64,000 bases of DNA from a virus (IMGVR_UViG_2894272399_000002:1-64000); one strand, 5' to 3'; counted from the stretch's first letter, positions 4,824 through 47,501 are shown. A program made the numbers and translations. Notes: generated by a model not told the origin, from the letters alone.

Positions 4824-6010
4824 ACGATCACGGCATTGGTGGTGAATGCTTCAATTTTCTCAATCACTCCAGCGATGATGATATAATATGTACCTGGTGA
4901 GGTGTATTTTCTGGTGATTAGTAGGTTTGTCCCATAGACGTCCCGTGAGTTGGTGCCGTCACCCCAATAGATGTCGAGCATCTTGTAAGAAGTAAGTGTG
5001 ATTTCCAGATCCGGAGTTGAGTCGTCAACTTTGATGTATCGGAGAACCCGTTTAACGGGTTGTTTTTCTTTCAGGTTTAGTGTGAAGGTGCAAAACGCTT
5101 TTCCTTCTCTCCATTTTTTATCGAATTCAATTTTGCCTTTGTGATGGACTTCAAAAACCAATGGCTTGGTTCCGATATCGACCATGAGCCTTTGGGTACC
5201 GTTCCTTTTGAACTGGTCTTTGATCGCCGTCTGAGTATTGAGCATAGCATCCTTTCCGATGGCAGAGAACCAGCAGCCGAGTTCAATTTCGCGTGGCATA
5301 TAACGGATATCGTCAAGATCTTCGAACGAACCGTGCTCATCGAGCCAATCGTGATCCGAAGATTCTTTTTGCTCCAACCCATCTGTTAAACCTTTTTCGC
5401 TGGAAACAGTAATCCCCAAAGCTTTGAAGTCCATTCCATTGATGGAAAATCTGACTTGGTTGGCGAAGGTTGAAACGACTGGGATCAGATCGTTGGTAGT
5501 TAGCGCCTTCCCCTCTACAACCCGGAAAAGATCGATGCTGCACCATCCTGGTTCATTGTACCCGTTGTCGTTCTCAACACTGAATCCAGTGGGTGTCCCC
5601 CACTCTACCGGTCTGGATTTGACCTCTACGGGCCTTGCATCCACGTAAGCAGCATAAGTCCCCTCTTTATGTGCGAGGGCAATCATTGTCCATGTATCCG
5701 CCTTGGTGTGCAGGTCAATTCTGAATTCGGGGAAGCCCGGGAAGTTGACTAGTATCCAGGTGTTTGTCGGCCCGTAAATAGTCGGTGTGGCGGTAATCCA
5801 GAAGAAAACCGTGTATGTGGAATCAAAATCAATGATTGGTGTCAGAATCTCAACGTAGCCTGCGGCGGGAAAGATCACACAATTTCCTTCCCTTCCTTTT
5901 AAAAACCTCCCATTAATTACGTCGGCATGCACCCCGGACGGCGAGTAGTCGTATGCTACCAGTGAGCCGTCCGCCTCGTCGAAAGGAAGATCTAAAATGA
6001 GGTTGTCCAT
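4805..6010 (-). CDS. Distal tail (Dit)-like protein with N-terminal LamG/ConA-like domain
   Basis: LPFDE..G..AYDYS LamG-type start; HDW.DEHG...D and PREIEL Dit-like motifs; start moved to ATG at 6010, which follows an ACACAC motif. Confidence 0.7.
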   Translation of the reverse strand: MDNLILDLPFDEADGSLVAYDYSPSGVHADVINGRFLKGREGNCVIFPAAGYVEILTPIIDFDSTYTVFFWITATPTIYGPTNTWILVNFPGFPEFRIDLHTKADTWTMIALAHKEGTYAAYVDARPVEVKSRPVEWGTPTGFSVENDNGYNEPGWCSIDLFRVVEGKALTTNDLIPVVSTFANQVRFSINGMDFKALGITVSSEKGLTDGLEQKESSDHDWLDEHGSFEDLDDIRYMPREIELGCWFSAIGKDAMLNTQTAIKDQFKRNGTQRLMVDIGTKPLVFEVHHKGKIEFDKKWREGKAFCTFTLNLKEKQPVKRVLRYIKVDDSTPDLEITLTSYKMLDIYWGDGTNSRDVYGTNLLITRKYTSPGTYYIIIAGVIEKIEAFTTNAVIVWNKLL

Positions 6011-6030
6011 TAAGTGTGTGCTTTGCAAAA

Positions 6031-6169
6031 CAAAGATATATAATCATTTTGTTTTAGAATATATATAACATGATTATTGTTAATCAATGTAGCTATTATG
6101 AATAATTAATAGACGATGAAATATTTTTATATGTTATATATATTCTGTTTTAAAATATCTTTACATTTG
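6031..6169. promoter_or_regulatory. Divergent promoter pair with palindromic operators
   Basis: Bacteroidota -7 elements TATCTTTG (minus, 6031-6038) and TACATTTG (plus, 6162-6169); perfect 16-bp inverted repeat 6056-6071/6131-6146. Confidence 0.65.
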
Positions 6170-6310
6170 TATTCACGATAAGAATAACAGAATATTAGTA
6201 GTGGTATTGACGAGATGAGAGGCTTCAATACCATTCCCAGGAATGGAACTTCCACCGGGCCCGGATCAACTCTCATTGGTTCGGGCCTTCTTCGTTTTAA
6301 GATATATCGG

Positions 6311-7151: not shown

Positions 7152-7153
7152 TT

Positions 7154-7394
7154 GATCAGGTGGCGGAATTGGTAGACGCTCATCAGGTAAAGGAGACTTC
7201 GTTCGGTGAGACCGCGTAACGATGCGCTAAACGAGATAGCGAGACTGCATCCCTTAATTGGCCGAAAGGCGTTACCCACATATACAAGTGGATACGGTGG
7301 ATGGAATTGCAGCCCATTGATTTAGCAGAAGGGTAAAACGAGGCGTCGGTACACGCCTATCCTTACCATGCAGGTTCGAATCCTGCCCTGATCA
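7154..7394 (+). ncRNA. Giant tRNA-like RNA (Leu-type D-arm, canonical T-arm, about 190-nt structured insert)
   Basis: Acceptor GATCAGG/CCTGATC+A; D-arm TGGCGGAATTGGTAGACGC; T-arm GCAGG-TTCGAAT-CCTGC; no recognisable anticodon arm. Confidence 0.8.
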
Positions 7395-7480
7395 CCTAAC
7401 GAAGCGACGGACACACGAACGGCTGTAGCGCGAAGAACAGTTCAAGTGTCGGACGTCGGGGAAAGACCCGAAGCAAAGGA

Positions 7481-7562
7481 ACCTATGTAGCTCAGTCAGT
7501 TCAGAGTACCGTCGGTTGCAATATACCGACGGAGGTCATGGGGGCGGATCCCATCATAGGAG
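7481..7562 (+). ncRNA. Non-canonical tRNA-like RNA
   Basis: Cloverleaf: CCTATG/CATAGG, D-stem GCTC/GAGT, 8-bp stem CCGTCGGT/ACCGACGG with 8-nt loop, variable loop AGGTC, T-stem ATGGG/CCCAT with loop GGCGGAT. Confidence 0.75.
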
Positions 7563-7664
7563 CAACATCAAAGCCGAACAGTGAGCTGCAGTGGCGTATG
7601 CCAGCGACAGACCGTAGTCGCATGAATCAGGGATGAGGGCCAGCGGTCAGCCCGAACCGACGAT

Positions 7665-8837: not shown

Positions 8838-8970
8838 GATTTTAGAATTTGAGATTTCTTTAATAATGTTTTAATGAAAATATTATTGCAAAAAACATCA
8901 AAAAAATTTTTCTAATCTACTAGTCTTCAGGTAGTTACAATTATCAATCGTTCAATAATACACACACACC

Positions 8971-10151: not shown

Positions 10152-10179
10152 TTTTAGATAATAACGAGTTGAAACATAA

Positions 10180-16164: not shown

Positions 16165-16527
16165 ATGAAATATCTTGTTTTTATATTATTGTTCTCGGCA
16201 ACGGCAAGTGCCCAAGTCTTTGTCAATGGCGCCAACATCAACACTGTCAGGGAAATCAAAGTAATCGAGCTTATTGTCTTAGAAGACTTTGTTGCATCAC
16301 CCAACATCACCGCTTCTATCGATTACGGCCAAGAGCGTAAAGAACTTGAAGGCAAGATTACCAACGCAGCTGGTGAAAAAGTGAAATTCGGATCCATTGT
16401 CTGGGCAATAAATTACCTAGAAAATAGAGGATGGGAGTACGTCAATAACTCAATTATACAAAAAGGGCGTGGCGTAATTTACCGTTACTATTTCCGGAGA
16501 AAATCAACCGCCTCCGATGGAGCGTAG
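16165..16527 (+). CDS. Secreted small protein convergent with the tape measure gene
   Basis: Signal peptide MKYLVFILLFSATASA|Q; AINYL...GWEYV and YYFRRK motifs. Confidence 0.7.
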   Translation: MKYLVFILLFSATASAQVFVNGANINTVREIKVIELIVLEDFVASPNITASIDYGQERKELEGKITNAAGEKVKFGSIVWAINYLENRGWEYVNNSIIQKGRGVIYRYYFRRKSTASDGA

Positions 16528-19500
16528 CCAATCATAATTCAATGCTCTGCGGATTTCTGCCAAATCCTGCCTCATCGCGTATAGTTCTTGAGTGTTTTTA
16601 CTAATTGCCGCCAGTTCAAACAATGAGCTTCTGGCTACGATTAAATGATCGGCTTGAATAATTCTCATTGCCGTAATTTGACCCTCCAAAATGTTAACTG
16701 ACTCCTGCGAAGCCCCTGTAATGACCCCTTGCTGAGCTTTTGGCGCACTGCCTGAATTGCCATTTAGATCAACGCCGGTTACTGCCTCTATCTGATCAAA
16801 TTTCTTCTGTCCATCTTCAATGATCTTGTTGTAAAGAGCTTTTAATTCCGCGATCTCGGCATCCGTGAGCGTGTAGTCACTTAGAGAATATTCAGAGAAT
16901 TTATCATAGAACGCCTTCATATCTGCGTCCAGAAGATTTGCTTTCAATGAATTTTGGACCGCCTTCAACATCATTTGCTCGAAATCCTCTGCAAAATCCA
17001 TGGCGGATCGCTTACCATCAATAAAGCCTTGGACAATACTATCAACAATACCCTCTTCGGTCGTTCCAGTATAATAGGCTTTAAGCTCATTCATCAATTC
17101 CTTTTGCTGGGCAACCGCATCATTATATGTGTTGATCAGGTCTTCCAACGCTTTGACGTCCGCCTCAACCACTTCTTTCCCGTACAGCTTCCCTCCCCCC
17201 CTTTTAATCTCTGCAAGAAGGTTAATGTAGTCCTCAATATCTTGAAACCCGGATGTATCAACGCTTTCAAATTGATACTCTATTTTGGTCTTCGCTTTTC
17301 CGCCAGTCATTAGATTTGTCCAGAAGCCGCCAAACCCTTTATTCTCAACTTTCGTATTGAACACTGGATCAACAAATATCTCTTTTTGGGAGGCAATGGT
17401 GTCAACTGTTAGCTGTTGTAGTCGAGTAAGCGCATCTTCCTGCTGTTTGGCATATTGATCATAGAGTGAAAGCACTCCTTCTGCCCTATCCACTCCTTTT
17501 AAATCGTCAAGCAAAACGCGTTGGCGCTCCAATAGATAATTGATACCTTCCAGCTCATTGGCCAAATTCTGGTAATTCTCTACCTGGGCATCCATTGCGG
17601 TAGCCAAATCCGAAGCCTTCAACATGGCATCTCTGGCTGAAGTGATAGCGAAAGTGATTATCCCGACAATGCTACCGACCTGATCAGCAGTTGATGCGCT
17701 ACTATCCATTAAGGTTGAAATGTCGTTGAGCGCAGCGCTGATCTGCTTGAAGGAAATAGAAAATGATTTGGAGATATTGATGCTAGTATCACCCAAAATT
17801 GAATCAAGGATGCCGGCAGCTTCTTTTAGCCCGTCGGACGTATCTTTGTTCAACTCTCGTTTGGTGTTGGCCAATAGCAATTCGAGCTTTTTCCGCTCTT
17901 CGATCGATAATTTTTCCTTTTTAAGGGCCTCGTCAATATCTGCAATCCTGGCTTTAATCTGCTTCCGACCATAGTCAAGATATTGTTGATATATTTTCTT
18001 GTATGAATCCGACTGCTCAAATTCTACATCTTTGATCGCATCTAATTCCTCGTTTTTCTTTAGTTCTATTGCCTTTAATTGTCCCTCCAGTTCGTCTCCA
18101 CTAGAATTTTTCTGAGCCAACACCTTCAATTCCAAGTATCTTTTCTCGATTTGTAAGACCTTGGCTCCATTGGCATTTGCCTCGACCAGAAAATCACTCA
18201 GCATCAACTGCAATTCCCTTTTTATAGATTGTCTCATTTCGGAGACTTGCTTTAGTTTTTCGAAATCGTCCTCTGTTTTCGGAGTTCCAAGGCCCGATTG
18301 AATTGCGGCCAGATTATCTAAGGCCTCAGATAAAGAGCCTGCGCTTTGCTCAGCCTCGATCAACTGTTTGTTGAATAACTCAATCCCCGAATCCTTTCCT
18401 GTGACACGGTTTTTTTCGGTGTTAAGCAAATCGAGTTTGCTGCTATCTGCCTGGTTTAAAGGTGTAAAATCATTCAGAGATTGTAGTTTTCTAATCTCTG
18501 AATTTATATAATCCAGATATGACTCATTCCCAGCAACCAAGTTTTTGAATTGCTCATCTGCGGCTTTCTTCCCGTAAGCATCGACCCAGCGCTGATAAAG
18601 TTCATACTGCTGTTTTTTCAGTGCGATTTCTTCCTCAAATGACTTGACAGCGTAAAGTTTCCGGATGTCCTCGGCCTTCTTCTCGGCTTCGGTTTTGATC
18701 TGCATTTGCTGAGAAAGGACACTGGTATTACTACCAGGCGTTTTGTCGATTACTTCCTGGGCTTTTCTGGCAATTTCCTCCCAATACGAGATCGATCCGA
18801 ACGGGCCAATTTTATCAGCGTCCTTTTTATACTTCTGCTGCTCTTTGGTTAACTCGCCAGTTATTGCCCGACGCTTGGCATCAAGAGCATCGATTTGCTT
18901 TTGAAGTTGTTTGTATTCTGAGTTCGAAGAAGCGGTTTCCTGTTGCTCTTGAAGTGACTTAATGGAATCTGTGTAGAATTTAACCGTTTGGTCGGCATCT
19001 GACTTCTCATCAGAGATTGCTTTTTGTCTCTGTTGCCTGCGCGCCTCAATTCCCTCCCGCGACTTTTGAACAAGTGTCTTTTCGTAGTCTTCTAGTTCTT
19101 TAATTGCTTGCTCCCTGTTTCGTCGGGTAATTACATCTGCCTCTTTTTGCAAGTCGACTTTGCCTCCTGAAAAGCTTTGAGCCAAAGCCAACCCCGTGCC
19201 CTCCAAAACAGAAGGGAGAAATTCTTTATCGGCGCTCCCTGACTTTAGTTCTTTGATCCGCTCCCTGGTCTTCTGTTTCTCGTCGTACAAATTCTGCTGA
19301 ACCATCCGCTCTTTCATTGCTCGAACGGTTGCTTCAATTGCCTTTGTGCTTTCGTCTGTGGCGATGTTCTCCAAAGTAAGCGCACTTAAATGTCTGGGTG
19401 AAAGTGCGATGAGTTCCTGTAACTTTTGTTTCCGCTCTTCCTGTGATTTGGTTTCGTCCTGTATTGATTTCTTTAATTGATCAACCTTGATTTTCCGTTG

Positions 19501-20655
19501 GATATCGACCTTGTCCGACTTCTCGATTTCACCATTGAGACGCTGCTGGGCCTTTTGGGCTTCCGTGGCAGTATCGCGGAACAGTGCAACCGCCGTCACC
19601 AAAGTAACCAGGGCCGTCGCAGCTATGACATAAGGATTGGCTTTGGTAACCAGATTGAAGAAAATCTGAGCATCAGCAGCCGAATGAATTGAAAGAGCGA
19701 GATCGCGGTACATTTTCGCTGCGGCGATAGCAGCTGGCAAGGCTTGAACAGCGGCAGTTGCGATAATAGCTGCGCGGTACGCACCATAGGTAGCGACGAT
19801 CGTCGTCAGAACATCCAACAGTGGTTCATAATTCTGAACTATCAGAGTGGCAAATTTGATTGAATCTCCCAATACTGCTTCTTGCGATTTCCCTATGTCG
19901 TTAAACATTATTTCAATCGCATCCTTTAACTGCGAAGTGAGGCCAGTGAGTGATTTGCTCTGTTTTTCCATTAAATTGAAAAACATCCCCCCTTCACCAG
20001 TCATGTTTTTAAACGCCTTTTCGACTTCCGGAAATCCTACTTTCCCTTGCTCAACAAACTCATTGACCTTATCGACATTCGTTCCAAGAACCTTAGCCAG
20101 CTCTGCATAAATTGGTATTCCTCGTCCAGCAAATTGTCTTATATCAACGGCATACGCTCGACCTTGCGACCTCAATGTTCCGTACAGATAGGTGAGATCA
20201 CCAATGGGAACGGAGATGCCTGCGGACACATCACCAAGCATCCGGAGTTCTTTGACAACATCTTGCGAGGCAGATCCATAGGCTAAAAGCTGTTTTGTTG
20301 CATTTGCCGCGTCTTTTAGTCCAAAAGGAGTTTGAGCCGCGAGTTGGACGACTTCCCCTAAAAGCTTATCGGCTTTAGCCTTGTTCCCCAACATAGTGGT
20401 AAAGGCAATTTCCAATTGCTGGAATTCGCCTCTGACCTGAATAAGCTTTTGGGGAAGTTGTGAAAGCTCAGTGAAAGCAAAATAACCGGCGGCGGCCCTA
20501 CCAAGCTTTGAAAATGTGTCGTCAATCTTTTGAGATTCCTTTACCGCTGTATTACTTAGGCCCTGAACATCCCGAATCATTTCATTGATCCCGGCACGAA
20601 ACTTGGCGTTTGCAAGGATGGCTTCGTAAGAGAGCGCCCCGTCGGTAGTATTCAT
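16504..20655 (-). CDS. Tail tape measure protein
   Basis: 1383 aa, helical; QTPF, KQLLAYG and DIRQFAGRGIPI tape-measure N-terminal motifs. Confidence 0.92.
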   Translation of the reverse strand: MNTTDGALSYEAILANAKFRAGINEMIRDVQGLSNTAVKESQKIDDTFSKLGRAAAGYFAFTELSQLPQKLIQVRGEFQQLEIAFTTMLGNKAKADKLLGEVVQLAAQTPFGLKDAANATKQLLAYGSASQDVVKELRMLGDVSAGISVPIGDLTYLYGTLRSQGRAYAVDIRQFAGRGIPIYAELAKVLGTNVDKVNEFVEQGKVGFPEVEKAFKNMTGEGGMFFNLMEKQSKSLTGLTSQLKDAIEIMFNDIGKSQEAVLGDSIKFATLIVQNYEPLLDVLTTIVATYGAYRAAIIATAAVQALPAAIAAAKMYRDLALSIHSAADAQIFFNLVTKANPYVIAATALVTLVTAVALFRDTATEAQKAQQRLNGEIEKSDKVDIQRKIKVDQLKKSIQDETKSQEERKQKLQELIALSPRHLSALTLENIATDESTKAIEATVRAMKERMVQQNLYDEKQKTRERIKELKSGSADKEFLPSVLEGTGLALAQSFSGGKVDLQKEADVITRRNREQAIKELEDYEKTLVQKSREGIEARRQQRQKAISDEKSDADQTVKFYTDSIKSLQEQQETASSNSEYKQLQKQIDALDAKRRAITGELTKEQQKYKKDADKIGPFGSISYWEEIARKAQEVIDKTPGSNTSVLSQQMQIKTEAEKKAEDIRKLYAVKSFEEEIALKKQQYELYQRWVDAYGKKAADEQFKNLVAGNESYLDYINSEIRKLQSLNDFTPLNQADSSKLDLLNTEKNRVTGKDSGIELFNKQLIEAEQSAGSLSEALDNLAAIQSGLGTPKTEDDFEKLKQVSEMRQSIKRELQLMLSDFLVEANANGAKVLQIEKRYLELKVLAQKNSSGDELEGQLKAIELKKNEELDAIKDVEFEQSDSYKKIYQQYLDYGRKQIKARIADIDEALKKEKLSIEERKKLELLLANTKRELNKDTSDGLKEAAGILDSILGDTSINISKSFSISFKQISAALNDISTLMDSSASTADQVGSIVGIITFAITSARDAMLKASDLATAMDAQVENYQNLANELEGINYLLERQRVLLDDLKGVDRAEGVLSLYDQYAKQQEDALTRLQQLTVDTIASQKEIFVDPVFNTKVENKGFGGFWTNLMTGGKAKTKIEYQFESVDTSGFQDIEDYINLLAEIKRGGGKLYGKEVVEADVKALEDLINTYNDAVAQQKELMNELKAYYTGTTEEGIVDSIVQGFIDGKRSAMDFAEDFEQMMLKAVQNSLKANLLDADMKAFYDKFSEYSLSDYTLTDAEIAELKALYNKIIEDGQKKFDQIEAVTGVDLNGNSGSAPKAQQGVITGASQESVNILEGQITAMRIIQADHLIVARSSLFELAAISKNTQELYAMRQDLAEIRRALNYDWLRSIGGG

Positions 20656-20840
20656 TATCGTTCTAGTGTGCCGTGGTAGTTCATTAATTGTTTCATCAGG
20701 CCCTCATGCGATAGCATCTTGCCCTTTTCCGAATCCGCCTCTTTATTCTTTTTGGATTTGTAGGTAGGAGCATCGATGAGCATTCTCTGGATGACTGCCC
20801 AAGGAATCTCCCACATCAATTCATGGTAAGTGATTTTCAT
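20655..20840 (-). CDS. Tail assembly chaperone, second (gpT-like) frame
   Basis: Between chaperone and tape measure; the -1 frame is open back to GGATTTT at 20975-20981. Confidence 0.65.
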   Translation of the reverse strand: MKITYHELMWEIPWAVIQRMLIDAPTYKSKKNKEADSEKGKMLSHEGLMKQLMNYHGTLER

Positions 20841-20878
20841 GTGGGTAAGGATAGAGCCGCGCGAACCGTAAGGACTGT

Positions 20879-21400
20879 TTAGTCCTCGATGTTCAGATCC
20901 TCCATCAGCTGCGTCTCCGGCATTTGAGGGGTCGTCGTCCTCCTCGCTGCGCTCAGGTATCTGATAGAGTTTATAAAATCCCCATAGTAGCTCATCTGAA
21001 GAATGATCAGCGTAAGTTTAAAGAGCATGCGCGAATTGATTCGCCAATAGAAGTAATCAGCCAGGAAAGGGAAGATAAACCGGAAGAGCGGGCTATTGCC
21101 AAGCACTGCGATTGCCACGATCCGCGCGCACCGTTTTGTATGCTTTTTGGTCAGGTTTTTAGCCTCTTTCAGATAGGGGTCTTTTTCAAGCAACTCCTCA
21201 TCCAGATCAAGCTTGATATATTCGTCCGAAAGCCTGTCCATGACTCCCAGGGGCGGGCTTTTAATGTGGAATTTGCGGAGTTTGGTTTTACTCAGTGAAC
21301 CCGTCCAGCGCTTGGGAACTTCAAAAAACATCCCGCGACTATTGAGAAGGTCAAGTTCTTTCTGTTCTGCTTCCCTGGGATCAAATGGCTGTTCTTCCAT
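20879..21400 (-). CDS. Tail assembly chaperone (gpG-like)
   Basis: Position between major tail and tape measure genes; contains a slippery GGATTTT. Confidence 0.7.
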   Translation of the reverse strand: MEEQPFDPREAEQKELDLLNSRGMFFEVPKRWTGSLSKTKLRKFHIKSPPLGVMDRLSDEYIKLDLDEELLEKDPYLKEAKNLTKKHTKRCARIVAIAVLGNSPLFRFIFPFLADYFYWRINSRMLFKLTLIILQMSYYGDFINSIRYLSAARRTTTPQMPETQLMEDLNIED

Positions 21401-21412
21401 AGTGTGTATTGA

Positions 21413-21440
21413 ATAAAAGCCTCAACTGGGAGGCTTTTAT
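21413..21440 (-). terminator. Terminator after the major tail gene
   Basis: ATAAAAGCCTC-n6-GAGGCTTTTAT. Confidence 0.7.
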
Positions 21441-21465
21441 GTCTGTTATGATGTGAATTACAGTA

Positions 21466-21972: not shown

Positions 21973-22019
21973 TGTCGTGTGTGTTTATTATTAGTGTGTG
22001 TGATTACCGGTTACCCGGC

Positions 22020-24969: not shown

Positions 24970-25006
24970 TTTCTAGTGTGTGTTTCAAATGTTATTTAAT
25001 GGAAGC

Positions 25007-25405: not shown

Positions 25406-25412
25406 TTTTTTA

Positions 25413-26105: not shown

Positions 26106-26143
26106 GAAAACCTCATGTGTGTATAGCGTGTGTGTTGAATGCA

Positions 26144-26286
26144 CAAATATAAAAATAAATATATTCTAAAAACAAATGTATTTAAATCATTAAAGAAAAT
26201 ATTTTATTGTCATTTGATGACATTAAAGAATAATATTAAAATGAATATCAATTTATATATGTTTTATTTCAGAATGTATATATTTG
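26144..26286. promoter_or_regulatory. Divergent late promoters with operators
   Basis: TATATTTG on minus (26144-26151) and plus (26279-26286); palindromic boxes at 26161-26179 and 26259-26277. Confidence 0.7.
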
Positions 26287-26313
26287 CATAATAACACACA
26301 CTAAGAGAAGGTA

Positions 26314-26763
26314 ATGCGATTGATCAGCACAGTGCTCACACTACTGTTAATGTTGTCAACCCTGGGATCACTTCAGGCGCAGACTACATTCACCATTACC
26401 ATCCCTCAGGACGTAGCCACTAAAGAGTGGGTTCAGGATTACGTCAAAAAGAAGATTGATAGCCTGAACGCTATTCAGCATGCCCCATTCCCGCCCTGCA
26501 CTCAAGGCCCCGAGATACGCGAGATAATAACTGCATCGAAAGACTACCTAACCGTAAAATTCCACGGTGTGAATGTCACCTCGCTGGACTACATCATTTT
26601 CAATAACGCCCAAATCAGAACGGGGCGATTAAAGCCTGAGTCAAGCACAATCAAATTCAGCTTTAAAGAACTTCCAACCGGGACGTATTCACTGACCCTG
26701 AGCGGCGGAATGTGCACAGGTTCAGACACAAAGACATTTAAGATTAAGAACAACACACTATAA
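26314..26763 (+). CDS. Secreted protein with one Cys-bounded Ig-like domain
   Basis: Signal peptide LQA|Q; ATKEWVQDY motif; C..GP.I...GTY.L.L.G..C domain. Confidence 0.75.
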   Translation: MRLISTVLTLLLMLSTLGSLQAQTTFTITIPQDVATKEWVQDYVKKKIDSLNAIQHAPFPPCTQGPEIREIITASKDYLTVKFHGVNVTSLDYIIFNNAQIRTGRLKPESSTIKFSFKELPTGTYSLTLSGGMCTGSDTKTFKIKNNTL

Positions 26764-26764
26764 A

Positions 26765-29601: not shown

Positions 29602-29726
29602 CTAAAATCGAAAAAGCAATCCTCCTTGGACTTGTAGCGATCACAGCAGCCGGTATGCTGACACTTTGCTACGGAGCTTATCAAAACCAAAAAAACAGAG
29701 AAACGCATGAAGAACCCTGGGGTTAA
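29598..29726 (+). CDS. Small single-TM protein (42 aa, not in ORF track)
   Basis: MTKIEKAILLGLVAITAAGMLTLCYG...; ATGA overlap with the previous stop. Confidence 0.45.
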   Translation: MTKIEKAILLGLVAITAAGMLTLCYGAYQNQKNRETHEEPWG

Positions 29727-29935
29727 GAAAGCAACCAGTAAGCCCTGCCAGAGTTGCAAGATAAAATGTGCAAGGCCAAGGGATCCGAGGCGACCAAAGA
29801 AAGAAGATAACGAATTACCATAGTTCTTATTGTGCGGTTAATGGTGAGCAAAAGGTGTCGGAAGGTTTTCTGACATCTTTTTAAAAGACCAAAACCCCGA
29901 TCAAGAAGTAAGAATACCAAAGTACACACACGATA

Positions 29936-32002
29936 ATGAGATTCAAACACACACTATTATCCTTATTGCTTTCATTCTCCTGCTTTGCTCAGGTAGATCT
30001 GCATATCCCAAACGCTGGCAACGCAGCTACAAGGGAGTGGGTAAAGGTGTATTTGGATGAGTGGCTTACCCGCGTGCCCCCACCGGTTATCAATCCTCCC
30101 GCCGACACTGCGAGCGGGCTTCCTGCATGCACATCCGGGCCGATTATCAATTCAGTAAGCAATGTCACGAAGACGAGCCTCAAAGCTTCTCTTTCCTTCA
30201 CGGGCGTCACGAGCCTTAACTGGGCAATCTATAAATCTTCGGCGCCTGGTTTGATTTTAAAATCCGGCAACATCTCGCCACTGAACGGTACAAACAATAT
30301 TAATTGGGTGGGTGACCTCGTTCCGGGCGAACATGTATTGAAAGTTTACGGTGTCAATTGCACAGGTGGTTCGACTTCCAATTTCATTTTAAGCTCAACT
30401 CCTACCCCTCTGCCTTGTACTGCTGGGCCGGTTATTCTGAACCTATTCAATGCAACTAGAACTGGATTAATCTTTGAATGGTCGGGGCTCAATGTCCCTG
30501 AAATTGTTTGGACAATCAAGCAGGGGGCGACCACAATCCGGTCAGGTTCGTTTGTGACTTCCGGAGCGCAGACTATCAATATCAGCTACACGCAGCTTGG
30601 GTTTGGAACGTACGACCTGCAGTTGAACGGGCTTACCTGCCCTACCCAGACAGCAGCAAGGTCATTTACGCTGATTGACAACACTCCTACCCCAACAACG
30701 GCAAGAGCATTTTATCTGAACCTGACAGGTTACGGATGGGATCAGGAAGACCCTACTGGCATTCGAGTTGACAATCGAAACATGATTGACGCCTTTGTCA
30801 ACATGAATTACCAGGGAACCAACTTTAAAGGGATTCAGGGCCTTCGCATAAACATCAAATGGTACGAGTACGAGCCATCAGAAGGAAACTTTCAGGACTC
30901 CCGGTTGCTGGCAATATTGAACTGGTGCAAATCCCGTGGAATTAAACTTTCGGTAGCTCTCATTCCATGGAGACGCGAGGGAGATAACATGATCCCAAAT
31001 GGACACAAATCAACGCTGATCAATGACCGTATCTGGTATGCAGAAGGTTCGTTGCAAGATTTGACCACCTACAAAACCTATCAACCAAGCACCCAGAGCC
31101 CTATTGGACGGGAGAAGTTCAGACGCGTCGCACGGCACATGGCCCAAACGCTAAATCAGTTCCCTAATGATGTCGACTACATCTCCACGGCAACCGCGCT
31201 TACGGAAGAGTATCAGTTGATCCGCGATGAAAGCCCTATGCTGATGACTGGATACAGCCAGATCGATAAGGAAGCTTGGAACACGTTCGCGGGAGGACTG
31301 CCTGTCCCATATCCTGCTAGTTACTCGGATGTTTCAAGCATCGAATCAATGATGTCGACTAGTAACGGTCGAAAATGGTACGAATTCCAGACAAAAGGGC
31401 TCAAAGATTTTCATGCTGAATTCGTCGCAGGCGTCAAAGAAGGTGGACTCAGGGCTTGCGGAATGTATGCTGGTGCAGGGGCCCCTTCCGCTGTTTATGA
31501 TTTCACTTACAAGCTCAACGAGATATACAGCGCCGGGCAACCCAATCAGCCGAACATCATCTATTCATCCGAAGGTGATGCCGGTAGCCAAGGAAGCAAG
31601 CTCATGGCAACTGACCTGAACATGGGCACATTCCCAGCGTCGAACTATGCAATTGAATTTGACCCAGAAGACATCGCTGCGAATCAGGTGCACAATCCGC
31701 CCTACGGAATCGATTTGAACGGGAACCTCCTTTATCAATATGCATCATCATTTTTCCGGAGAGGTGGCAACATCGTTCATTTCGCAATGTCTTTCGCCCC
31801 GAACAAGCTTCATCAGATTTATGAGGCAATGTTCAATCTGCGAAACCAATTCATCGACACTAACTCGGGAATGACCGGAATTGATCAAGGAACACCATTC
31901 AACTTCCCGATCACAAATTATACAGGAATGCAAGGATATCGCGGACAATGGTCGGCAAACGGAGGCGGGTTGAACAAACAAGTCAAATTCACATTGCAAT
32001 GA
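29936..32002 (+). CDS. Secreted protein with two Ig-like repeats and a TIM-barrel glycoside hydrolase-like domain
   Basis: Signal peptide CFA|Q; ATREWVKVY; KWYEYEPSEGNF resembles the W..EP.EG.F motif of GH42/GH35-like enzymes. Confidence 0.75.
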   Translation: MRFKHTLLSLLLSFSCFAQVDLHIPNAGNAATREWVKVYLDEWLTRVPPPVINPPADTASGLPACTSGPIINSVSNVTKTSLKASLSFTGVTSLNWAIYKSSAPGLILKSGNISPLNGTNNINWVGDLVPGEHVLKVYGVNCTGGSTSNFILSSTPTPLPCTAGPVILNLFNATRTGLIFEWSGLNVPEIVWTIKQGATTIRSGSFVTSGAQTINISYTQLGFGTYDLQLNGLTCPTQTAARSFTLIDNTPTPTTARAFYLNLTGYGWDQEDPTGIRVDNRNMIDAFVNMNYQGTNFKGIQGLRINIKWYEYEPSEGNFQDSRLLAILNWCKSRGIKLSVALIPWRREGDNMIPNGHKSTLINDRIWYAEGSLQDLTTYKTYQPSTQSPIGREKFRRVARHMAQTLNQFPNDVDYISTATALTEEYQLIRDESPMLMTGYSQIDKEAWNTFAGGLPVPYPASYSDVSSIESMMSTSNGRKWYEFQTKGLKDFHAEFVAGVKEGGLRACGMYAGAGAPSAVYDFTYKLNEIYSAGQPNQPNIIYSSEGDAGSQGSKLMATDLNMGTFPASNYAIEFDPEDIAANQVHNPPYGIDLNGNLLYQYASSFFRRGGNIVHFAMSFAPNKLHQIYEAMFNLRNQFIDTNSGMTGIDQGTPFNFPITNYTGMQGYRGQWSANGGGLNKQVKFTLQ

Positions 32003-32039
32003 CTTCCCTTCCACACATGAACATTTTAAAAGAAGACCA

Positions 32040-32685: not shown

Positions 32686-33128
32686 TGAAGACACAAAAGC
32701 AGTTAATCGAGAAGTTCGGCAACCCGGCGGTAGATAACATCACATTTGAAAGAAAATGGATGACATTATGGCATGTTCCGGAAGCTATCGGTGATCATAT
32801 TCCGGCTATTCCTGGTAAGATATACCTCAATAATCTGATCAAAGAACGCCTTGAAACGACTTTGTTCGCATTGATAGAAGCTGACCTTCATTCGGAGATT
32901 AAAACATTTGACGGCTGCTTCAACATACGCAAGAAACGGGGACTAGAAACACTTTCCTTACACGCCTTTGGGATAGCAGTAGATCTTAACGCGGCCTGGA
33001 ACCAATTAGGCAAGCCAAGTACCTGGAGTAATGATTTTATTGAAGTATGGCGGCGCAATGGATGGGAATGTGGCGCAGACTGGAAGGGACGGATTGATGC
33101 AATGCACTTCCAATGGGATAATTTTTAA
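32679..33128 (+). CDS. Endolysin, M15 metallopeptidase
   Basis: R...LSLHAFGIAVDLN (SxHxxGxAxD) and DAMHFQ. Confidence 0.88.
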   Translation: MVMKTQKQLIEKFGNPAVDNITFERKWMTLWHVPEAIGDHIPAIPGKIYLNNLIKERLETTLFALIEADLHSEIKTFDGCFNIRKKRGLETLSLHAFGIAVDLNAAWNQLGKPSTWSNDFIEVWRRNGWECGADWKGRIDAMHFQWDNF

Positions 33129-33134
33129 CACACT

Positions 33135-34486: not shown

Positions 34487-34494
34487 ACACACTA

Positions 34495-36675: not shown

Positions 36676-36721
36676 GAATCGCAGTCGCTTAAAAAAGTAA
36701 CAAACACACACGCTATATAAA

Positions 36722-38758: not shown

Positions 38759-38770
38759 CCATACACACAC

Positions 38771-39154: not shown

Positions 39155-39169
39155 AATACACACTAAAAT

Positions 39170-41519: not shown

Positions 41520-42161
41520 TTGACCATGACCGACCCACGAAGAAAAGATAAACAGATCGCAGAAGCCAGACGCGTGATCGTCGCCGAGTGCTATAAAAGG
41601 GGCATGACGATCCGGCAAACCTGCGAGGCTGTCATGAAACAAATGAGTTTGGATGGGCCGCCCAGCACCAAAACGATTTTCAACGATCGGGACTTCCTTC
41701 TCAAAGAATGGAAGAAGGAAAGGATTCAAGATGTGGATGACATGCTCCAACTTGAACTAACCCGGATTGACGATATCATCATTGAGCTTTGGGAGGCCTG
41801 GAAAAAGTCAAAAACCGATTACAAATCAAAATTCTCCAAACAAAAAGGCGAACTGCCCGCGGGTGTTTCTCACGATAGGGATATCGATAAGGAGGAAAGG
41901 AAGCGCATTAAAGCAACGTATGCAGAGCGCGGAGAAAGGGAAGAAATTATGTTCGGAGATCCGAGGTATTTATCAGAGATACGCTTCCAGCTCATAGAAA
42001 GAAGAAAGCTTTTGGGGCTATACGCTCCGGAGAAAAAAGAAGTAACAGGAGCGGGAGGAAAAGACCTTCTACCAGAGAGGACACAGGATATCAGCATGCT
42101 TACAGCCGAAGAGAAAGCCATCCTTTTAGACATTGCACGGAAAGTTGATAGAACAAAGTAG
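41520..42161 (+). CDS. Terminase small subunit
   Basis: N-terminal HTH, GDPRYL, ERRKLLGLYAPEK; position. Confidence 0.75.
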   Translation: MTMTDPRRKDKQIAEARRVIVAECYKRGMTIRQTCEAVMKQMSLDGPPSTKTIFNDRDFLLKEWKKERIQDVDDMLQLELTRIDDIIIELWEAWKKSKTDYKSKFSKQKGELPAGVSHDRDIDKEERKRIKATYAERGEREEIMFGDPRYLSEIRFQLIERRKLLGLYAPEKKEVTGAGGKDLLPERTQDISMLTAEEKAILLDIARKVDRTK

Positions 42162-43614
42162 CATATCGTATTACCAACTCCTCGATGATATTGAACGTGA
42201 AGCATGTAGGGATTCTTTTTACGAGTTTTTGCAGTCTTTTTGGGACGTGATCATCAAAGAAACCCCTGTATTCAATTGGCACATTAAATTTCTATGCGAC
42301 GAGCTGCAAGAACTATCTAAAAGCATTGTGAGAAGAGAGGCAAAACCATACGATCTGATTGTAAACATCCCGCCTGGAACGACAAAATCCACGGTGACAA
42401 CGATCATGTGGCCTGCATGGTTATGGACTCAGGATCCGACGATCCGGATTATCACAAATTCCTACTCCATGGACTTGTCGATAGAGCATGCGGTTAAATC
42501 GCGCGATATTCTCACTTCCGAAAAGTTTAAACGCCTTTTTCCTGAAGTAAAGATCCGGAAAGACAAAGGGGCCAAGTCCTCCTATGAGAACACAAACACC
42601 GGCGCCCGTTACACTACATCTACCGGCGGTACGATTACAGGTAAGCATGCGCACATCCTGATCAGTGATGACCCGTTAAATCCAAGCCAGGCCGCATCCG
42701 ACGCAGACAGGAAGGCCGCTAACGAGCACACTAAAACTTTGTCGTCGCGTAAGGTCGATAAAGCCAATACGCCAGTGATTACCATCATGCAGCGACTTCA
42801 TGAGGAAGACGTGACGGGATATCTTCTCAAAAAGAAGGGCGAAAAGATCCGGCATTTGAACCTGCCCGCCGAAGACAGTGAAAAAGTTCTTCCCGCGGAA
42901 GTACGGGCAAAGTATATTTCTGGCTTGCTGGATCCTGTTCGCTTAAACAGGTCGGTTCTGGATGAAGCGCTGACCGATCTTGGATCTATGGGCTATGCCG
43001 GTCAGTACGATCAATCGCCGACTGCGAAAGGCGGGAACATCGTAAAAGCAACCTGGTTCAAATACATGTCCTCCGCCAGCTTTCAGTCGATACGGACACC
43101 ACAGAACCCGGTAGTTTTCTTCATGGACACGGCCTACACGGACAAAGACCAGGACAATGACCCAACTGGCATAATTGCCACATGCAAAATCGGAGCAGAC
43201 TTATACATCACCAAAGCGGCTAAGGTTTACAAAGAATTTCCAGAGCTCATCAAATTCGTCCCGGATTGGGTTCGGGCCAATGGCTACTCCAACCAAAGTA
43301 CATTGCGAATTGAACCGAAAGCGTCGGGGTTGTCGGTTGTTCAGCAACTGAAAAGAACGACCGATATCAACATCACGACAACGCCGACACCGAAGGACGA
43401 TAAGAAAACCAGGCTAACCGCGTCGTCTCCAAAGATCGAATGCGGCCGTGTGATCCTGATAACCGACACATGGAACGAAGACTTCGTTGACGAAATATGC
43501 GGTTTCCCAAACAAAACACACGATGAATACGTGGATTTGATCGCCTACGCGGTTGATTACCATTTGAACACACCCAAGACTCAGTCACACGCTATACACA
43601 ACGCTTTTAGATGA
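42133..43614 (+). CDS. terL: Terminase large subunit
   Basis: NIPPGTTKS, ITGKHAHILISDDP, MQRLHEED, nuclease DTAY and FPN..HDEYVD. Confidence 0.95.
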   Translation: MHGKLIEQSSISYYQLLDDIEREACRDSFYEFLQSFWDVIIKETPVFNWHIKFLCDELQELSKSIVRREAKPYDLIVNIPPGTTKSTVTTIMWPAWLWTQDPTIRIITNSYSMDLSIEHAVKSRDILTSEKFKRLFPEVKIRKDKGAKSSYENTNTGARYTTSTGGTITGKHAHILISDDPLNPSQAASDADRKAANEHTKTLSSRKVDKANTPVITIMQRLHEEDVTGYLLKKKGEKIRHLNLPAEDSEKVLPAEVRAKYISGLLDPVRLNRSVLDEALTDLGSMGYAGQYDQSPTAKGGNIVKATWFKYMSSASFQSIRTPQNPVVFFMDTAYTDKDQDNDPTGIIATCKIGADLYITKAAKVYKEFPELIKFVPDWVRANGYSNQSTLRIEPKASGLSVVQQLKRTTDINITTTPTPKDDKKTRLTASSPKIECGRVILITDTWNEDFVDEICGFPNKTHDEYVDLIAYAVDYHLNTPKTQSHAIHNAFR

Positions 43615-45029: not shown

Positions 45030-45032
45030 GCC

Positions 45033-45221
45033 ATGGACGATCTCGTATTACAGATAATCAACGCCTGCATCCAGCAAAGAAAAGATTCCGGTCTTACACC
45101 GCATCATGTGACTTTGATCAACCTTGACAGAAGCATAAAAGACTCGCTGAACCGGCTTTATTCTGCCGGTAAAATCAAGGTTGGGGATACAATTAACGAT
45201 AAATACATTGATGTTTTATGA
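45033..45221 (+). CDS. Small hypothetical protein
   Basis: 62 aa, translationally coupled to the kinase gene. Confidence 0.55.
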   Translation: MDDLVLQIINACIQQRKDSGLTPHHVTLINLDRSIKDSLNRLYSAGKIKVGDTINDKYIDVL

Positions 45222-45742
45222 GTGATAAAAAAATAGTGGCAGCTCCTGAATTAAAGAAATTAGAGAATAATCTAAATAGCATCACCGAGTTATGTACAAT
45301 TTCTGGACTTGCGTCGGTCTCCGCTGATCTCATCACGTGCCTTGTTGCCGAAAAGATCGGAAGCGGTTGCTATCGATCCGTTTACGAGTACAACCTAGAT
45401 CCAAAATATGTTATTAAGATCGAGCCATTAAACACTAACTGTAATATCACAGAGTACTTATTGTGGAATGAAATACGCGGATTAACAGGGGATCTTGCAT
45501 GGGTTAAGGACTGGTTCGCCCCAGTGAAATGGATGTCCCCAAACGGACGCGTTCTTGTCATGGAACGTACAAAGCAAAACTACAAAAAGAAGAAGCCAAC
45601 TGAGATTCCTAAGTTCATGTGGGATGTAAAGGAGGATAACTTCGGATGGATTGGCAAAAAATATGTTTGCCACGACTATGGTCAGTTTTACAACTTCATT
45701 CATTACTCGAAGGCAATGCAAAAGGTCGGCAATCGGTGGTAG
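45218..45742 (+). CDS. Minimal protein-kinase-like protein
   Basis: IGSGCYRSVY (Gly loop), VIK, LVMER, DVKEDN (catalytic loop), HDYG. Confidence 0.75.
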   Translation: MSDKKIVAAPELKKLENNLNSITELCTISGLASVSADLITCLVAEKIGSGCYRSVYEYNLDPKYVIKIEPLNTNCNITEYLLWNEIRGLTGDLAWVKDWFAPVKWMSPNGRVLVMERTKQNYKKKKPTEIPKFMWDVKEDNFGWIGKKYVCHDYGQFYNFIHYSKAMQKVGNRW

Positions 45743-45815
45743 CCGTCCGTCTAAGAATAAATGACGTTTATCTAAGCAATGACTTAGATCTCTGTCTAAA
45801 CACACAACACACACT

Positions 45816-47501
45816 ATGCCAAAGTTTTCAGTCGAAGGCTGGGACGGCGAACATTTCAAAAGGACGGAGGTTTTCGCCAAACAGGTTCGGAATATTTACC
45901 TTGCTGCAATCCGGGAAGCAATCCGTATGGGGTTGTCTGTTAATTACGACCCGAGCAAACCGTTCTCGTTCTCCAAATTCCCAGTCTTAAATCAGCGGGT
46001 CAAAAAGCTCTTTGGTGACCTATCCGATAAGATCGAAGCTGTCATAACCGATGGCATCAACTCCGAATGGGAGTTTGCCAACGACAAAAACGACTCGTTT
46101 CTTAATAGTGTCCTGAAAACCGACAAGATGCCTGAGCGGGCGCTGGCCAGGTTAACGGGACGAAACAATGAAGCACTCGTTCAGTTCCAGCAGCGACGGA
46201 CAAACGGACTCGGCTTATCCGACCGGGTATGGAACACGAACCAGCAATTCCGGTCCGAGTTAGAAATGGCCTTGGAGCTTGGCATTGCCGACGGACGATC
46301 AGCTGATCAACTCAGCCGTGATATCCGTTCTTACCTGGAAGACCCAGACAAGCTTTTTCGAAGAATAAGGGAGCGAGAGAACGGGCCGCTGCGATTGTCC
46401 CAACATGCCAAGAATTACAAGCCCGGACGCGGTGTTTACCGAAGCTCGTATAAAAACGCTCTTCGCCTGACTCGTACGGAGATCAATATGGCTTACAGGG
46501 AGTCCGATTTTGCCCGCTGGAAGAACTTTGACTTCGTTGTTGGGATAGAGGTTAGGCGTAGTAATAACCCCTACCCTTGCATTGTTTGCGAGAGTTTAAA
46601 AGGCCGCTACCCAAAAACATTCAAGTTCAGATCCTGGCATCCGCAATGCCGCTGTCATGCCATTTCAATTCTGGCCACGGAGAAGGAGATCAATGAGATG
46701 GAGTTGAAAATGCTCAATGGGGAAGATACTTCGGAATTTGTCAGTAAAAATGAGGTTAGGGAAATGCCCGCCGGACTTACCAGCTGGATTAACGACAATA
46801 AGCAACGACTTCTTTCCTCAGCAAGTCAGCCGTATTTTATACAGGACAACTTTAAAGGCGGGCATCTTTCCGGAGGATTAAAATTAACGTTGCCCGGCGA
46901 TCCAATTGATCCATACATCAAAGCAACCAGATCGAAAGAAAACGTTTTTGCGAGACGATCCACCGATATTGCGAAAGCACTGAGAGTGAAAGTTACTGAC
47001 GTGAACAAGAAATCGATCAGTCGAATTGTGGAGAAAGCGAATGCGGACTACGGCGGCGATATAACCCAAGTTCACGACATCATTAGAAATACCTTTATCT
47101 CATCAACTCTGGTTTCTCCTGAGGATATCCTCGACAAAGTCAATGAAGAATTCCAGGTAATCAAAGTGAAAGAACAATCAGCAAGTAAAGATCCTATGGG
47201 ATATAGCGGGATTCTTGTTCAAGTCCTTTTAGAAAAGAACATTTTTGCAGAAATCCAGATCAATACACCGCAGATGATTTACGCAAAAGAAGCAAATGCA
47301 AAAGAAATTCTCGGGGATGACTTATTCGAGGAAATTCAAGCCGCTTCAGGACTGGAACACGGCCTTGGACATGCTTATTATGAAGAATACCGAACCATTG
47401 ACCAGTCCACAAGTAAAGGGAAAGAATTGGCTCTTAAAGTGATGGACAAATCGAAAAAATACTATGAGAAGCTTCGATCCGCGGCATTAAAATCAAAATG
47501 A
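45816..47501 (+). CDS. MuF/gp7 head protein fused to a RelA/SpoT-type synthetase domain
   Basis: LTRTE..MAY, C..C and WHPQCRC (MuF); KS..R..EK, D..R, GY and EIQINT (RelA/SpoT SYNTH). Confidence 0.85.
   Translation: MPKFSVEGWDGEHFKRTEVFAKQVRNIYLAAIREAIRMGLSVNYDPSKPFSFSKFPVLNQRVKKLFGDLSDKIEAVITDGINSEWEFANDKNDSFLNSVLKTDKMPERALARLTGRNNEALVQFQQRRTNGLGLSDRVWNTNQQFRSELEMALELGIADGRSADQLSRDIRSYLEDPDKLFRRIRERENGPLRLSQHAKNYKPGRGVYRSSYKNALRLTRTEINMAYRESDFARWKNFDFVVGIEVRRSNNPYPCIVCESLKGRYPKTFKFRSWHPQCRCHAISILATEKEINEMELKMLNGEDTSEFVSKNEVREMPAGLTSWINDNKQRLLSSASQPYFIQDNFKGGHLSGGLKLTLPGDPIDPYIKATRSKENVFARRSTDIAKALRVKVTDVNKKSISRIVEKANADYGGDITQVHDIIRNTFISSTLVSPEDILDKVNEEFQVIKVKEQSASKDPMGYSGILVQVLLEKNIFAEIQINTPQMIYAKEANAKEILGDDLFEEIQAASGLEHGLGHAYYEEYRTIDQSTSKGKELALKVMDKSKKYYEKLRSAALKSK

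Follow-up and report, generated by a model that had tools for sequence, protein, structure and literature searches.

Work of Sharma et al. in 2007 reportedly concerned the small RNA (sRNA) GcvB and its C/A-rich targets, and Martin-Farmer and Janssen are said to have found in 1999 that alternating CA repeats raise translation in Escherichia coli, from leadered and leaderless messenger RNAs (mRNAs) alike. In enterobacteria, C/A-rich enhancers of translation are silenced by the R1 seed of GcvB; the study describes ACA and CA motifs as enhancing translation independently of position and as targets of that G/U-rich seed, and proposes S1 as their reader (Yang, Figueroa-Bossi and Bossi 2014, PMC3879156). 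In Bacteroidota, start codons are described as lying in an A-rich, Kozak-like context (Baez et al. 2019, PMC6847099) and the anti-Shine-Dalgarno (anti-SD) sequence as being sequestered (PMC7797042). Base-pairing RNAs also connect the expression of phage and host, and the cases described are phage-encoded sRNAs (bioRxiv 10.1101/2024.10.31.621285, PMC12197685). Here we describe an alternating AC tract that stands before the late genes of a prophage in the stretch IMGVR_UViG_2894272399_000002:1-64000 (64,000 nucleotides (nt); 'the window' below means this whole stretch), together with a host locus that looks like an sRNA gene and whose predicted RNA is complementary to the tract. A search of a limited collection of literature found no description of either the motif or the RNA.

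The window corresponds to G000:C37:117940-181939, within an 8.4-Mb genome of 39 contigs, and is a siphovirus-type prophage in the genome of a soil-type member of the Bacteroidota. Its host, whose genus is labelled g1, is probably Dyadobacter, because the closest relative of the major head protein (L047, 71% identity) sits in a contig of Dyadobacter sp. Genes were called by open reading frame (ORF) heuristics and profile hits (Pfam, PHROGs), and 83 were curated; signal peptides and promoter boxes were judged by eye. Sequencing runs matched to 20500-30400 of the window comprised no RNA run and one DNA run, which had a 0.07 share of the words. An initial annotation had proposed that the tract is a phage-specific translation signal, being either an unstructured enhancer or the site at which a phage RNA-binding protein or RNA gates late translation.

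Placement and anatomy of the tract

How closely is the tract tied to gene starts? At all 15 starts listed in the initial annotation, A/C tracts of 6-10 nt end 0-12 nt before the ATG, with two tracts apiece at 21972, 26105 and 45816. The copies it had called partial proved to be of two kinds: at 43611 there are indeed two 5-nt pieces, whereas the minus-strand gene at 49742 has a full 7-nt tract (ACACACA, 49747..49753) 4 nt before its ATG. The window holds 41 copies of the word ACACAC; 100 dinucleotide shuffles hold 18.64 +/- 4.27, and none of them reaches 41. If a tract of at least 6 nt is counted as start-linked when an ATG within 12 nt opens an ORF of at least 80 codons, then 17 of 37 tracts are start-linked in the window versus 160 of 2552 in the remaining genome (Fisher p = 3.5e-11), in keeping with the specificity first proposed. 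Control hexamers of the same composition are start-linked in 3.5-6.0% of cases genome-wide, equal to the tract rate outside the window. Start-linked sites number 10, 4 and 3 in the window's three 20-kb bins, and no other bin of the genome holds more than 3. Away from starts, tracts lie at the background density of the genome (20 in 128 kb, both strands, versus 2552 in 16.7 Mb). The start-linked copies of the window all read AC on the coding strand, and none reads GT.

A longer word, CACACGCTATA, had been noticed before three genes. It has exactly 3 copies in the window, preceding 26105 (scaffold-like), 36722 and 43611 (portal), and 4 in the whole genome. The initial annotation saw no tract before the cargo genes it named (umuDC, an ImmA pair, a GTPase pair); we count 0 of 11 genes with a tract in the block with umuDC, SRAP and Fpg genes and 1 of 14 in the block at 6.2-16.1 kb, that at 8971, which is among the starts it listed.

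Which late genes carry the tract, and which do not? For the 83 curated genes we scored a full tract at most 30 nt from the ATG and measured the gap to the 5' neighbour. Late genes separated from that neighbour by at least 5 nt have a full tract in 14 of 16 cases, the exceptions being 25007-25405 and the doubtful gene 20655-20840. Where the late gene overlaps its neighbour or the gap is below 5 nt, the count is 1 of 18 (26765), with partial copies at the tape measure and portal genes. Early and cargo genes with gaps of at least 5 nt have it in 2 of 39 cases (8971 and 49742). The spaced late genes differ from the overlapping late genes with p = 1.6e-6 and from the spaced early and cargo genes with p = 3e-9 (Fisher). 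We conclude, from 14 of 16 against 1 of 18, that a late cistron either overlaps its predecessor or carries a tract.

The anatomy of the element was read from 37 sites in four prophages, anchored on the tract. Between -1 and 13 nt its distance from the ATG varies without a break, peaking at 1, 4 and 6. Upstream of the tract every position from -45 to -2 stays at or below 0.2 bit, and A or T occupies -1; the tract is followed by T in 28 of 37 sites, and the next letter is A in 28 of 37. The core that emerges from this alignment is therefore W-(AC)3-5-T-A. In the window the tracts end 0-22 nt before the ATG, with a predicted unpaired probability of 0.46-0.99. The region from -25 to -1 of the tract genes is 10% G and the tract itself has none, so that, with the anti-SD sequence as generally known, these leaders offer no GGAGG-type SD site.

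Conservation among related prophages

Is the tract shared by related phages? Relatives of the prophage occur in 18 of 301 genomes of the family, G000 included; such related genomes are not independent. Among related major-head loci (46 viral and 9 genomic) only two are tract-rich, L047 with 6 of 14 tracts before ORF starts and L036 with 7 of 15, and the others have 0-2. Of 16 regions from these genomes the tract-rich ones are G201 (9 of 16) and G048 (4 of 9), both of genus g1, and the distant G230 of g43 (5 of 15); the others again have 0-2. Longer stretches give 16 of 39 for G201 and 6 of 18 for G048, versus 1 of 12 for G296, 1 of 9 for G219 and 1 of 8 for G032. Among the ORFs of G201, the tract flags 14 of the 43 that belong to the prophage and none of the 28 that lie in the flanking host DNA. 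A 15-mer scan of IMG/VR, in which 80 loci (L167-L246) of at least 116 were scored, found L220 (6 of 13; the contig of L036) and L182 (5 of 11) to be tract-rich, and the others have 0-3.

Orthologous starts (those of the scaffold, major head, major tail, chaperone, tape measure and divergent genes) retain the tract although the flanks diverge and the proteins behind these starts are 32-71% identical. In a sample built on the major tail gene, a full tract precedes that gene in 5 of 6 prophages of g1 and the next gene in 6 of 6; outside g1 the count is 0 of 16 at either gene (g7, n = 7; g43, n = 6; g33, g24 and g14). Some g1 phages, at 32% identity, stand no nearer to the window than the g7 phages do, at 32-36%.

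Two side observations belong here. The G230 locus (L083, G230:C8:146100-166099) is a distant siphovirus from another genus, with a major head protein 32% identical; its 5 tracts before ORF starts are a CACACA variant lying directly before the start, and its sister prophages have 0-2. In many Bacteroidales-type relatives (L015, L029 and other gut-type loci) GAGGAGG lies 7-13 nt before the major head ATG. That an SD sequence replaces the tract in these gut relatives was considered and rejected: GAGGAGG belongs to the coding sequence at the 3' end of the preceding gene, and it is absent at other genes.

Host start sites and leader accessibility

What do the host's own start sites look like? That the host ignores SD-type sequences, a premise of the initial annotation, is borne out by GGAGG before 10 of 3506 high-confidence host starts. 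These starts are A/T-rich and G-poor, with A at 0.43-0.46 from -14 to -11, in agreement with the context described for Bacteroidota and introduced above, and ACACA precedes 71 of the 3506. The Kozak-like context has A at -3, -6, -12 and -13; in 16 tract genes of the prophage these positions hold A 11, 5, 10 and 7 times, respectively. Host starts that look genuine and carry a tract number 54 genome-wide. Sixteen of the 54, chosen for long or TA-extended tracts, were scanned; they encode DprA, RuvA, two IS200-type transposases and one PD-(D/E)XK transposase, two RHS proteins, a ComM-like ATPase, an oxidoreductase, a coiled-coil protein, one protein with a sub-threshold match and five without a family.

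Might the tract work by keeping the start codon free of structure? This explanation was rejected, since the predicted accessibility of the starts does not differ from that of 38 non-tract genes (p = 0.07) or from that of mononucleotide shuffles of -20 to -1 (p = 0.46). Because shuffled leaders are equally open, the order of the letters matters beyond composition. The unstructured enhancer of the initial annotation is thus not supported in so far as it relied on lack of structure alone. The broader idea of a phage-specific translation signal has support: within the genome the tract is specific to the phage and to its late genes, and it sits where such a signal would.

A candidate small-RNA gene in the host

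Does the phage encode a reader of the tract? Pfam and PHROGs gave no RNA-binding domain in 32 early or cargo proteins and 60 further ones, and no phage sigma factor or RNA polymerase among the window proteins. The genes exclusive to tract-bearing phages are only three, all secreted-looking. The tract-phage-specific genes for 858 and 688 amino acids (aa) were considered as phage RNA polymerases and rejected, for they have signal-peptide-like starts and no Pfam or PHROG match. Early genes of the window have almost no homologues in other tract-bearing prophages; the early region of G201 may be missing, because its contig begins within the prophage. No phage RNA-binding protein or RNA was thus found to fill the part of reader, and the one RNA that matches the tract has, by its covariance model, no copy in the prophage. 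Of the gating RNA in the initial annotation a modified version remains, in which the only candidate found is host-encoded and predicted.

This candidate came from a scan of the genome's non-coding DNA in which the complement of ACACACACTA was sought with up to one mismatch. The scan returned 26 places, three of them exact, and two of the exact matches are prophage sites on the opposite strand. After the third, at C35:444920 (+), come a hairpin and a T-run. This match belongs to a candidate sRNA gene of about 70 nt (G000:C35:444907-444976, plus strand, outside the window) between a TerC gene and a gene for 321 aa, both on the opposite strand. Of 41 genomes of the genus, 40 share about 80 nt of this locus at 88-100% identity, and the sole miss is an 88%-complete genome. 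In the family sample the element is present in g1 (26 of 26), g26 (3 of 3), g28 (8 of 8), g6 (2 of 2) and five genera of a single genome each, and was not found in g7 (0 of 27), g22 (0 of 26), g14 (0 of 12) or g27 (0 of 13).

Among 22 copies from 9 genera, a 17-nt alternating G/U stretch with AUA is invariant and the flanks vary. The terminator covaries: in its 11-pair stem, 7 pairs are changed on both sides, and all 22 copies have a T-run after it. Only the plus strand fits, because the stem's G.U pairs, read from the opposite strand, would turn into A.C mismatches. The best Rfam match of the element is a microRNA model at E = 0.16. A covariance model finds a single copy each in G000 (83.7 bits) and in the L047 genome (82.1 bits), and G015 has four; in G296, G219, G111, G233, G032, G145, G154 and G230 it finds plain terminators or nothing. 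Weak matches in G032, G145 and G230 and at G000:C39 were rejected as plain terminators without the GU stretch. The locus looks like a stand-alone sRNA gene with a GU-rich seed and is a candidate for a new sRNA family of Spirosomataceae.

How does its distribution compare with that of the tract? For all 7 tract-bearing prophages with a known host genome, the host holds the element (G000 and G301 by the model; G201, G048, G315 and G309 by BLAST; G327 by a 12-mer and its context). By the model, it was not found in 8 of 9 tested hosts of tract-less relatives.

Complementarity of the predicted RNA to phage leaders and a host site

The complement of the predicted seed, CACACUAUACACACACUAUA, contains both the longer word seen before 26105, 36722 and 43611 and the common phage form ACACACACUAUA, which stands directly before AUG in G201, G315 and L036. 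The GU-rich stretch of the RNA, which is invariant and single-stranded, is the complement of the extended tract forms ACACACACUA(UA) and CACACGCUAUACACA. Contiguous pairs number 16 at 26105 and 13 each at 36722 and 43611. The predicted duplex energy is -28.0 kcal/mol at 26105, -25.2 kcal/mol at 45816, -24.1 kcal/mol at 43611, -21.6 kcal/mol at 26314, -19.8 kcal/mol at 24969, -19.6 kcal/mol at 36722, -19.2 kcal/mol at 6010 and -18.8 kcal/mol at 21972. When the 10-mer used for discovery is held fixed and the flanks are shuffled 1000 times, no shuffle attains the energy observed, whether the best, the top three or the total is compared. A duplex of -16 kcal/mol or lower is predicted for 12 of 63 window genes versus 115 of 5805 host genes.

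Is there a host target as well? Of 62 genomes of the genus, 60 contain the 12-mer ACACACACTATA, for the most part because the RNA gene holds it. Six of these genomes have a second copy 4.7-20 kb away, mostly at about 16.6 kb. This copy is upstream of a gene for a Wza-like polysaccharide export protein, at 20-24 nt from the ATG (for example L356:2572-2583, minus strand, on G315:C7); there the flanks vary and the 12-mer is invariant. The Wza-like gene stands between a UDP-galactopyranose mutase gene upstream and a CpsB/CapC-type gene downstream, in an exopolysaccharide (EPS)-type operon, and is a candidate host target of the putative sRNA. G000 has no close homologue of it.

The sites in the prophage

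The prophage has an integrase gene at 1-1275. Its structural arm on the minus strand starts with the scaffold-like gene (25413-26105), continues with genes for the major head protein (23881-24969), the major tail protein (21466-21972) and the tape measure (16504-20655), and resumes with tail genes at 6010-1278. The plus-strand arm (26314-47501) holds genes for three secreted-looking proteins, an M15 endolysin, tail fibres, a spike, the terminase, the portal and a head-morphogenesis protein. Cargo lies in two blocks, at 6.2-16.1 kb and at 52.3-59.0 kb, the latter with umuDC, two SRAP genes and Fpg; window genes outside the arms and these blocks are small and of early type. Pfam and PHROGs gave no GTPase annotation on the window proteins, and the window has 0 matches to Rfam.

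On the minus strand, the tail protein gene at 6010 has CACACAC (6014..6020) 3 nt before its ATG and a TATCTTTG box (6031-6038) 10 nt upstream of the tract. The tape measure gene has the partial copy CACAC followed by TAGAAC (20666..20670), 10 nt before the ATG at 20655; the relatives L047 and L078 have a full tract at this start. The tail assembly chaperone-like gene has (AC)3 (21402..21407) 1 nt before its ATG at 21400, after a hairpin with a T-run. That hairpin (about 21415-21437, minus strand) lies between the major tail and chaperone-like genes, is kept in G201, L036, G315 and others, and is probably an attenuating terminator, as in many siphoviruses. Two tracts (within 21977..22002) stand 4 and 21 nt before the major tail ATG at 21972. 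Before the major head ATG at 24969, (AC)4 and then TAGAAA (24976..24983) leave a distance of 6 nt, and this tract sits in a 37-nt spacer that most relatives lack. The scaffold-like gene has ACACACACGCTATACACACA (26116..26135) before its ATG at 26105 and a TATATTTG box (26144-26151) upstream of the tract. Its leader also holds a four-codon mini-ORF (ATG AGG TTT TCA TGA, 26105-26119, minus strand) whose stop overlaps the gene's ATG; the true start of the gene is not certain, because the ORF stays open upstream to a GTG at 26144. The gene at 49742, for 114 aa, lies in the early-side block and is conserved in relatives both with and without tracts.

On the plus strand, (AC)5 (8960..8969) ends 1 nt before the ATG at 8971 of a Holliday-junction-resolvase-like gene (phrog_1770), which may well serve a late function. 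The gene at 26314, for a secreted-looking protein of 149 aa, has (AC)4 and then TA (26294..26301) 12 nt before its ATG, with a TATATTTG box (26279..26286) 7 nt before the tract. The box has the form TAnnTTTG, which we take to be the consensus of the host-type promoter box. At 26765, (AC)3 followed by TATAAA (26753..26758) stands 6 nt before the ATG, within the 3' end of the upstream ORF, and the gap is 1 nt. (AC)4 (29924..29931) lies 4 nt before the ATG at 29936 of a secreted-looking 688-aa gene, and CACACA (32012..32017), the weakest copy counted, 22 nt before the ATG at 32040. (AC)3 precedes a patatin-like gene (33128..33133; 1 nt before the ATG at 33135), a beta-helix tail spike-like gene (34487..34492, then TA; 2 nt before the ATG at 34495) and a tail fibre gene (39158..39163, then TAAAAT; 6 nt before the ATG at 39170). 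The collagen-like tail fibre gene at 36722 is preceded by (AC)4 that merges into the longer word (36704..36717), and at 38771 (AC)4 (38763..38770) abuts the ATG directly. The portal gene has CACACGCTATACACA (43586..43600), in the 3' end of the terminase gene and 10 nt before the ATG at 43611. At 45816, a head morphogenesis or minor head gene, there are the tracts ACACACA and ACACACAC (45800..45814), the second ending 1 nt before the ATG.

Some neighbouring features deserve mention. The three secreted-looking proteins (26314-26763, 26765-29341 and 29936-32002, plus strand) have signal-peptide-like N-termini with a common N-terminal motif and no Pfam or PHROG family match. They are limited to tract-bearing prophages (G201, L036, G048 and partly L047), being absent from G296, G219 and G032, and could be secreted or surface enzymes or lysogenic-conversion genes. 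In the first cargo block, an ORF-free stretch of 550 nt holds an element (7155-7400, plus strand) with ends resembling those of a transfer RNA (tRNA), acceptor/D-arm-like at the 5' side and T-arm/acceptor-like at the 3' side, about 200 nt apart; a further tRNA-like stretch lies at about 7485-7570 (plus strand). For both, ARAGORN found no tRNA and Rfam nothing at E up to 1.

Discussion

What might the tract do? We propose that it is a cis-acting element of the late mRNAs and that it would mark those late cistrons that initiate alone, that is, without overlapping the stop of the preceding gene. It probably acts in translation initiation, on the mRNA, where it most likely serves as a C/A-rich leader that recruits ribosomes in a host without SD pairing. 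We infer that such a leader would enhance initiation and that the host RNA would be expressed and would pair with it in vivo. As to the sign of the effect and the benefit to the phage, the RNA, if expressed, would pair over about -26 to +3 and occlude or tune initiation at most late genes, and pairing at these leaders could set a threshold or a physiological gate on particle production. That the tract is jointly a translation-initiation leader and a functional pairing site of the host sRNA is the reading we favour, tentatively. We are more doubtful of a wider proposal, in which a core sRNA of Dyadobacter-type Spirosomataceae, a functional counterpart of GcvB, would control the whole late set of the resident siphoviruses through one repeated CA site before each late cistron that initiates independently; the phages would keep the sites because the pool of sRNA serves as a threshold or gate for making particles, and lineages in genera without the RNA would be without them.

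A number of observations weigh against a functional host RNA or a strong enhancer. The major head data do not reject a single clade of the five tract-bearing phages (approximately unbiased (AU) test, p = 0.51), and because they are compatible with one clade, the link with the host genus may reflect a single event. The ranking of duplex energies is partly circular, the RNA having been found through the complement of the motif; any CA tract would pair with any alternating GU stretch, and contiguous pairing length is a weaker control, its observed value being reached by 23 of 1000 flank shuffles. By eye, the sRNA-like gene has no clear promoter box. Host genes give no regulon signal, with 115 predicted targets at host starts, 115 in internal coding windows and 118 for the reversed seed, and the host site of G000 at C33:679376 is not kept in 12 homologues (about 50% identity, maybe paralogues). 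G015 (g16) has four copies of the RNA gene, yet its 8-kb fragment of a related prophage is tract-free at all starts; conversely, G230 has its CACACA before ORF starts in a genome without the RNA. None of the 16 scanned tract-bearing host genes is ribosomal or typical of high expression, and the rarity of the tract at host genes is odd for a strong general enhancer.

Could the tract be an enhancer and nothing else? It would then be a C/A-rich leader favoured by an S1-type protein or by the ribosome, and its complementarity to the host RNA would be without consequence, or the RNA unexpressed. The placement rule and the flexible geometry agree with this, as do the tracts of G230, the tract-less phage of G015 and the missing regulon signal, and enhancers of the ACA/CA kind are documented (PMC3879156). 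It leaves unexplained the absence of the tract in relatives from five other SD-less genera (0 of 16), the TA(TA) that follows the tract and the recurrence of the CACACGCTATACACA form; in addition, composition-matched shuffles are as unstructured as the real leaders, and host genes hardly carry the tract. We consider it rather unlikely. A phage-specific late promoter or initiator, giving very short leaders or none, is unlikely by a wider mark. It would account for the TAnnTTTG-like box that, by eye, stands 7-10 nt upstream of the tract where three operons begin (6010, 26105 and 26314); there, because of the position of the box, transcripts probably begin at or just before the tract, and the tract probably forms nearly the whole leader. 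Yet most copies lie in gaps of 6-46 nt within operons, the distance from tract to ATG is continuous rather than bimodal, and no second element stands at a fixed distance. A -10-like box 0-3 nt from the ATG would start transcripts inside the ORF, no phage sigma factor or RNA polymerase was found among the window proteins, and the large genes specific to tract-bearing phages look secreted. We know of no melting box that a C/A repeat resembles.

The remaining explanations seem to us poorer still. Cleavage at ACA or CA by an endoribonuclease, with a logic like that of MazF, could free monocistronic, near-leaderless late mRNAs: MazF recognises the sequence ACA, cleavage near start codons is mentioned in PMC3879156, and the tracts lie between cistrons and are predicted to be unpaired. 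But the varying distance to the AUG would give varying leaders, the restriction to a host genus would go unexplained, and no nuclease is linked to the motif, so that we judge processing very improbable. The gene at 41520-42161 (plus strand), which matches phrog_645, annotated 'RNase E', stands in the place expected of the small terminase subunit, and its annotation is probably misleading. Slightly less probable even than this is a sponge, in which the CA leaders would titrate the host sRNA during lytic growth and derepress host targets such as polysaccharide export, any effect on the phage's own translation being secondary. At least 14 strong sites on abundant late mRNAs and the candidate target in an EPS-type operon speak for it; the idea is wholly inferential, G000 is without a close homologue of the Wza-like gene, and the exact siting at non-overlapping starts would have no explanation. 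Hardly credible, finally, is a tract without any function in expression, a slippage-prone microsatellite or a linker homology favouring the exchange of modules at gene boundaries. Tracts do flank mosaic genes (tail fibres, cargo-like genes), but the repeat is missing at early and cargo junctions, reads AC on the coding strand at every start-linked copy, is kept at orthologous starts of diverged proteins, and away from starts is no denser than the genome background.

Why should this matter? The choice of start sites in SD-less Bacteroidota is still open, and least understood for the internal cistrons of operons. The phage offers a clean rule, overlap or a CA tract, and with it a short sequence that is portable and open to direct testing for a role in initiation. 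If the host RNA is expressed, one chromosomal sRNA would address the whole late regulon of a prophage, and a new sRNA family of the Cytophagales would have a candidate host target in polysaccharide export. Through translation, the host may then have a switch for the making of phage particles.

How does the joint reading, leader and pairing site, compare with known systems? The Kozak-like context of Bacteroidota shares with the phage element its SD-less setting and, in 11 of 16 tract genes, an A at -3, and the tract fills the zone from -5 to -16 that is thought to lie near bS1 (PMC6847099); it differs in that the host signal is a positional enrichment of A, whereas the phage signal is a discrete word found at 54 host starts. 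The late promoters of T4, of the TATAAATA type, are likewise a short word before many late genes, on both strands and sometimes abutting the ATG; unlike them the tract is not AT-rich, has no fixed geometry and comes with no matching phage sigma factor that we could find. The CA repeats studied in E. coli were artificial and placed downstream of the start, while the phage tract is natural, lies upstream and is conserved in a phage lineage. From the phage-encoded sRNAs the present case would differ in that a core sRNA-like gene of the host would address a set of late cistrons through one repeated site.

The nearest parallel is with GcvB. As in its targets, CA or ACA repeats stand just upstream of the start, flexible in position and, here by prediction, unpaired; and as with GcvB itself, a chromosomal sRNA would present a complementary, GU-rich, unpaired region, so that one RNA can address many mRNAs. 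To our knowledge Bacteroidota lack Hfq. The phage tract also has no adjacent SD sequence and is a strictly alternating repeat followed by UA, its carriers are phage late cistrons instead of amino-acid transporter genes, and the host RNA, here predicted from its sequence, has neither likeness to GcvB nor an Rfam match. On paper, then, phage tract and host RNA would work as GcvB and its targets do, without belonging to that family, and GcvB is the closest known system.

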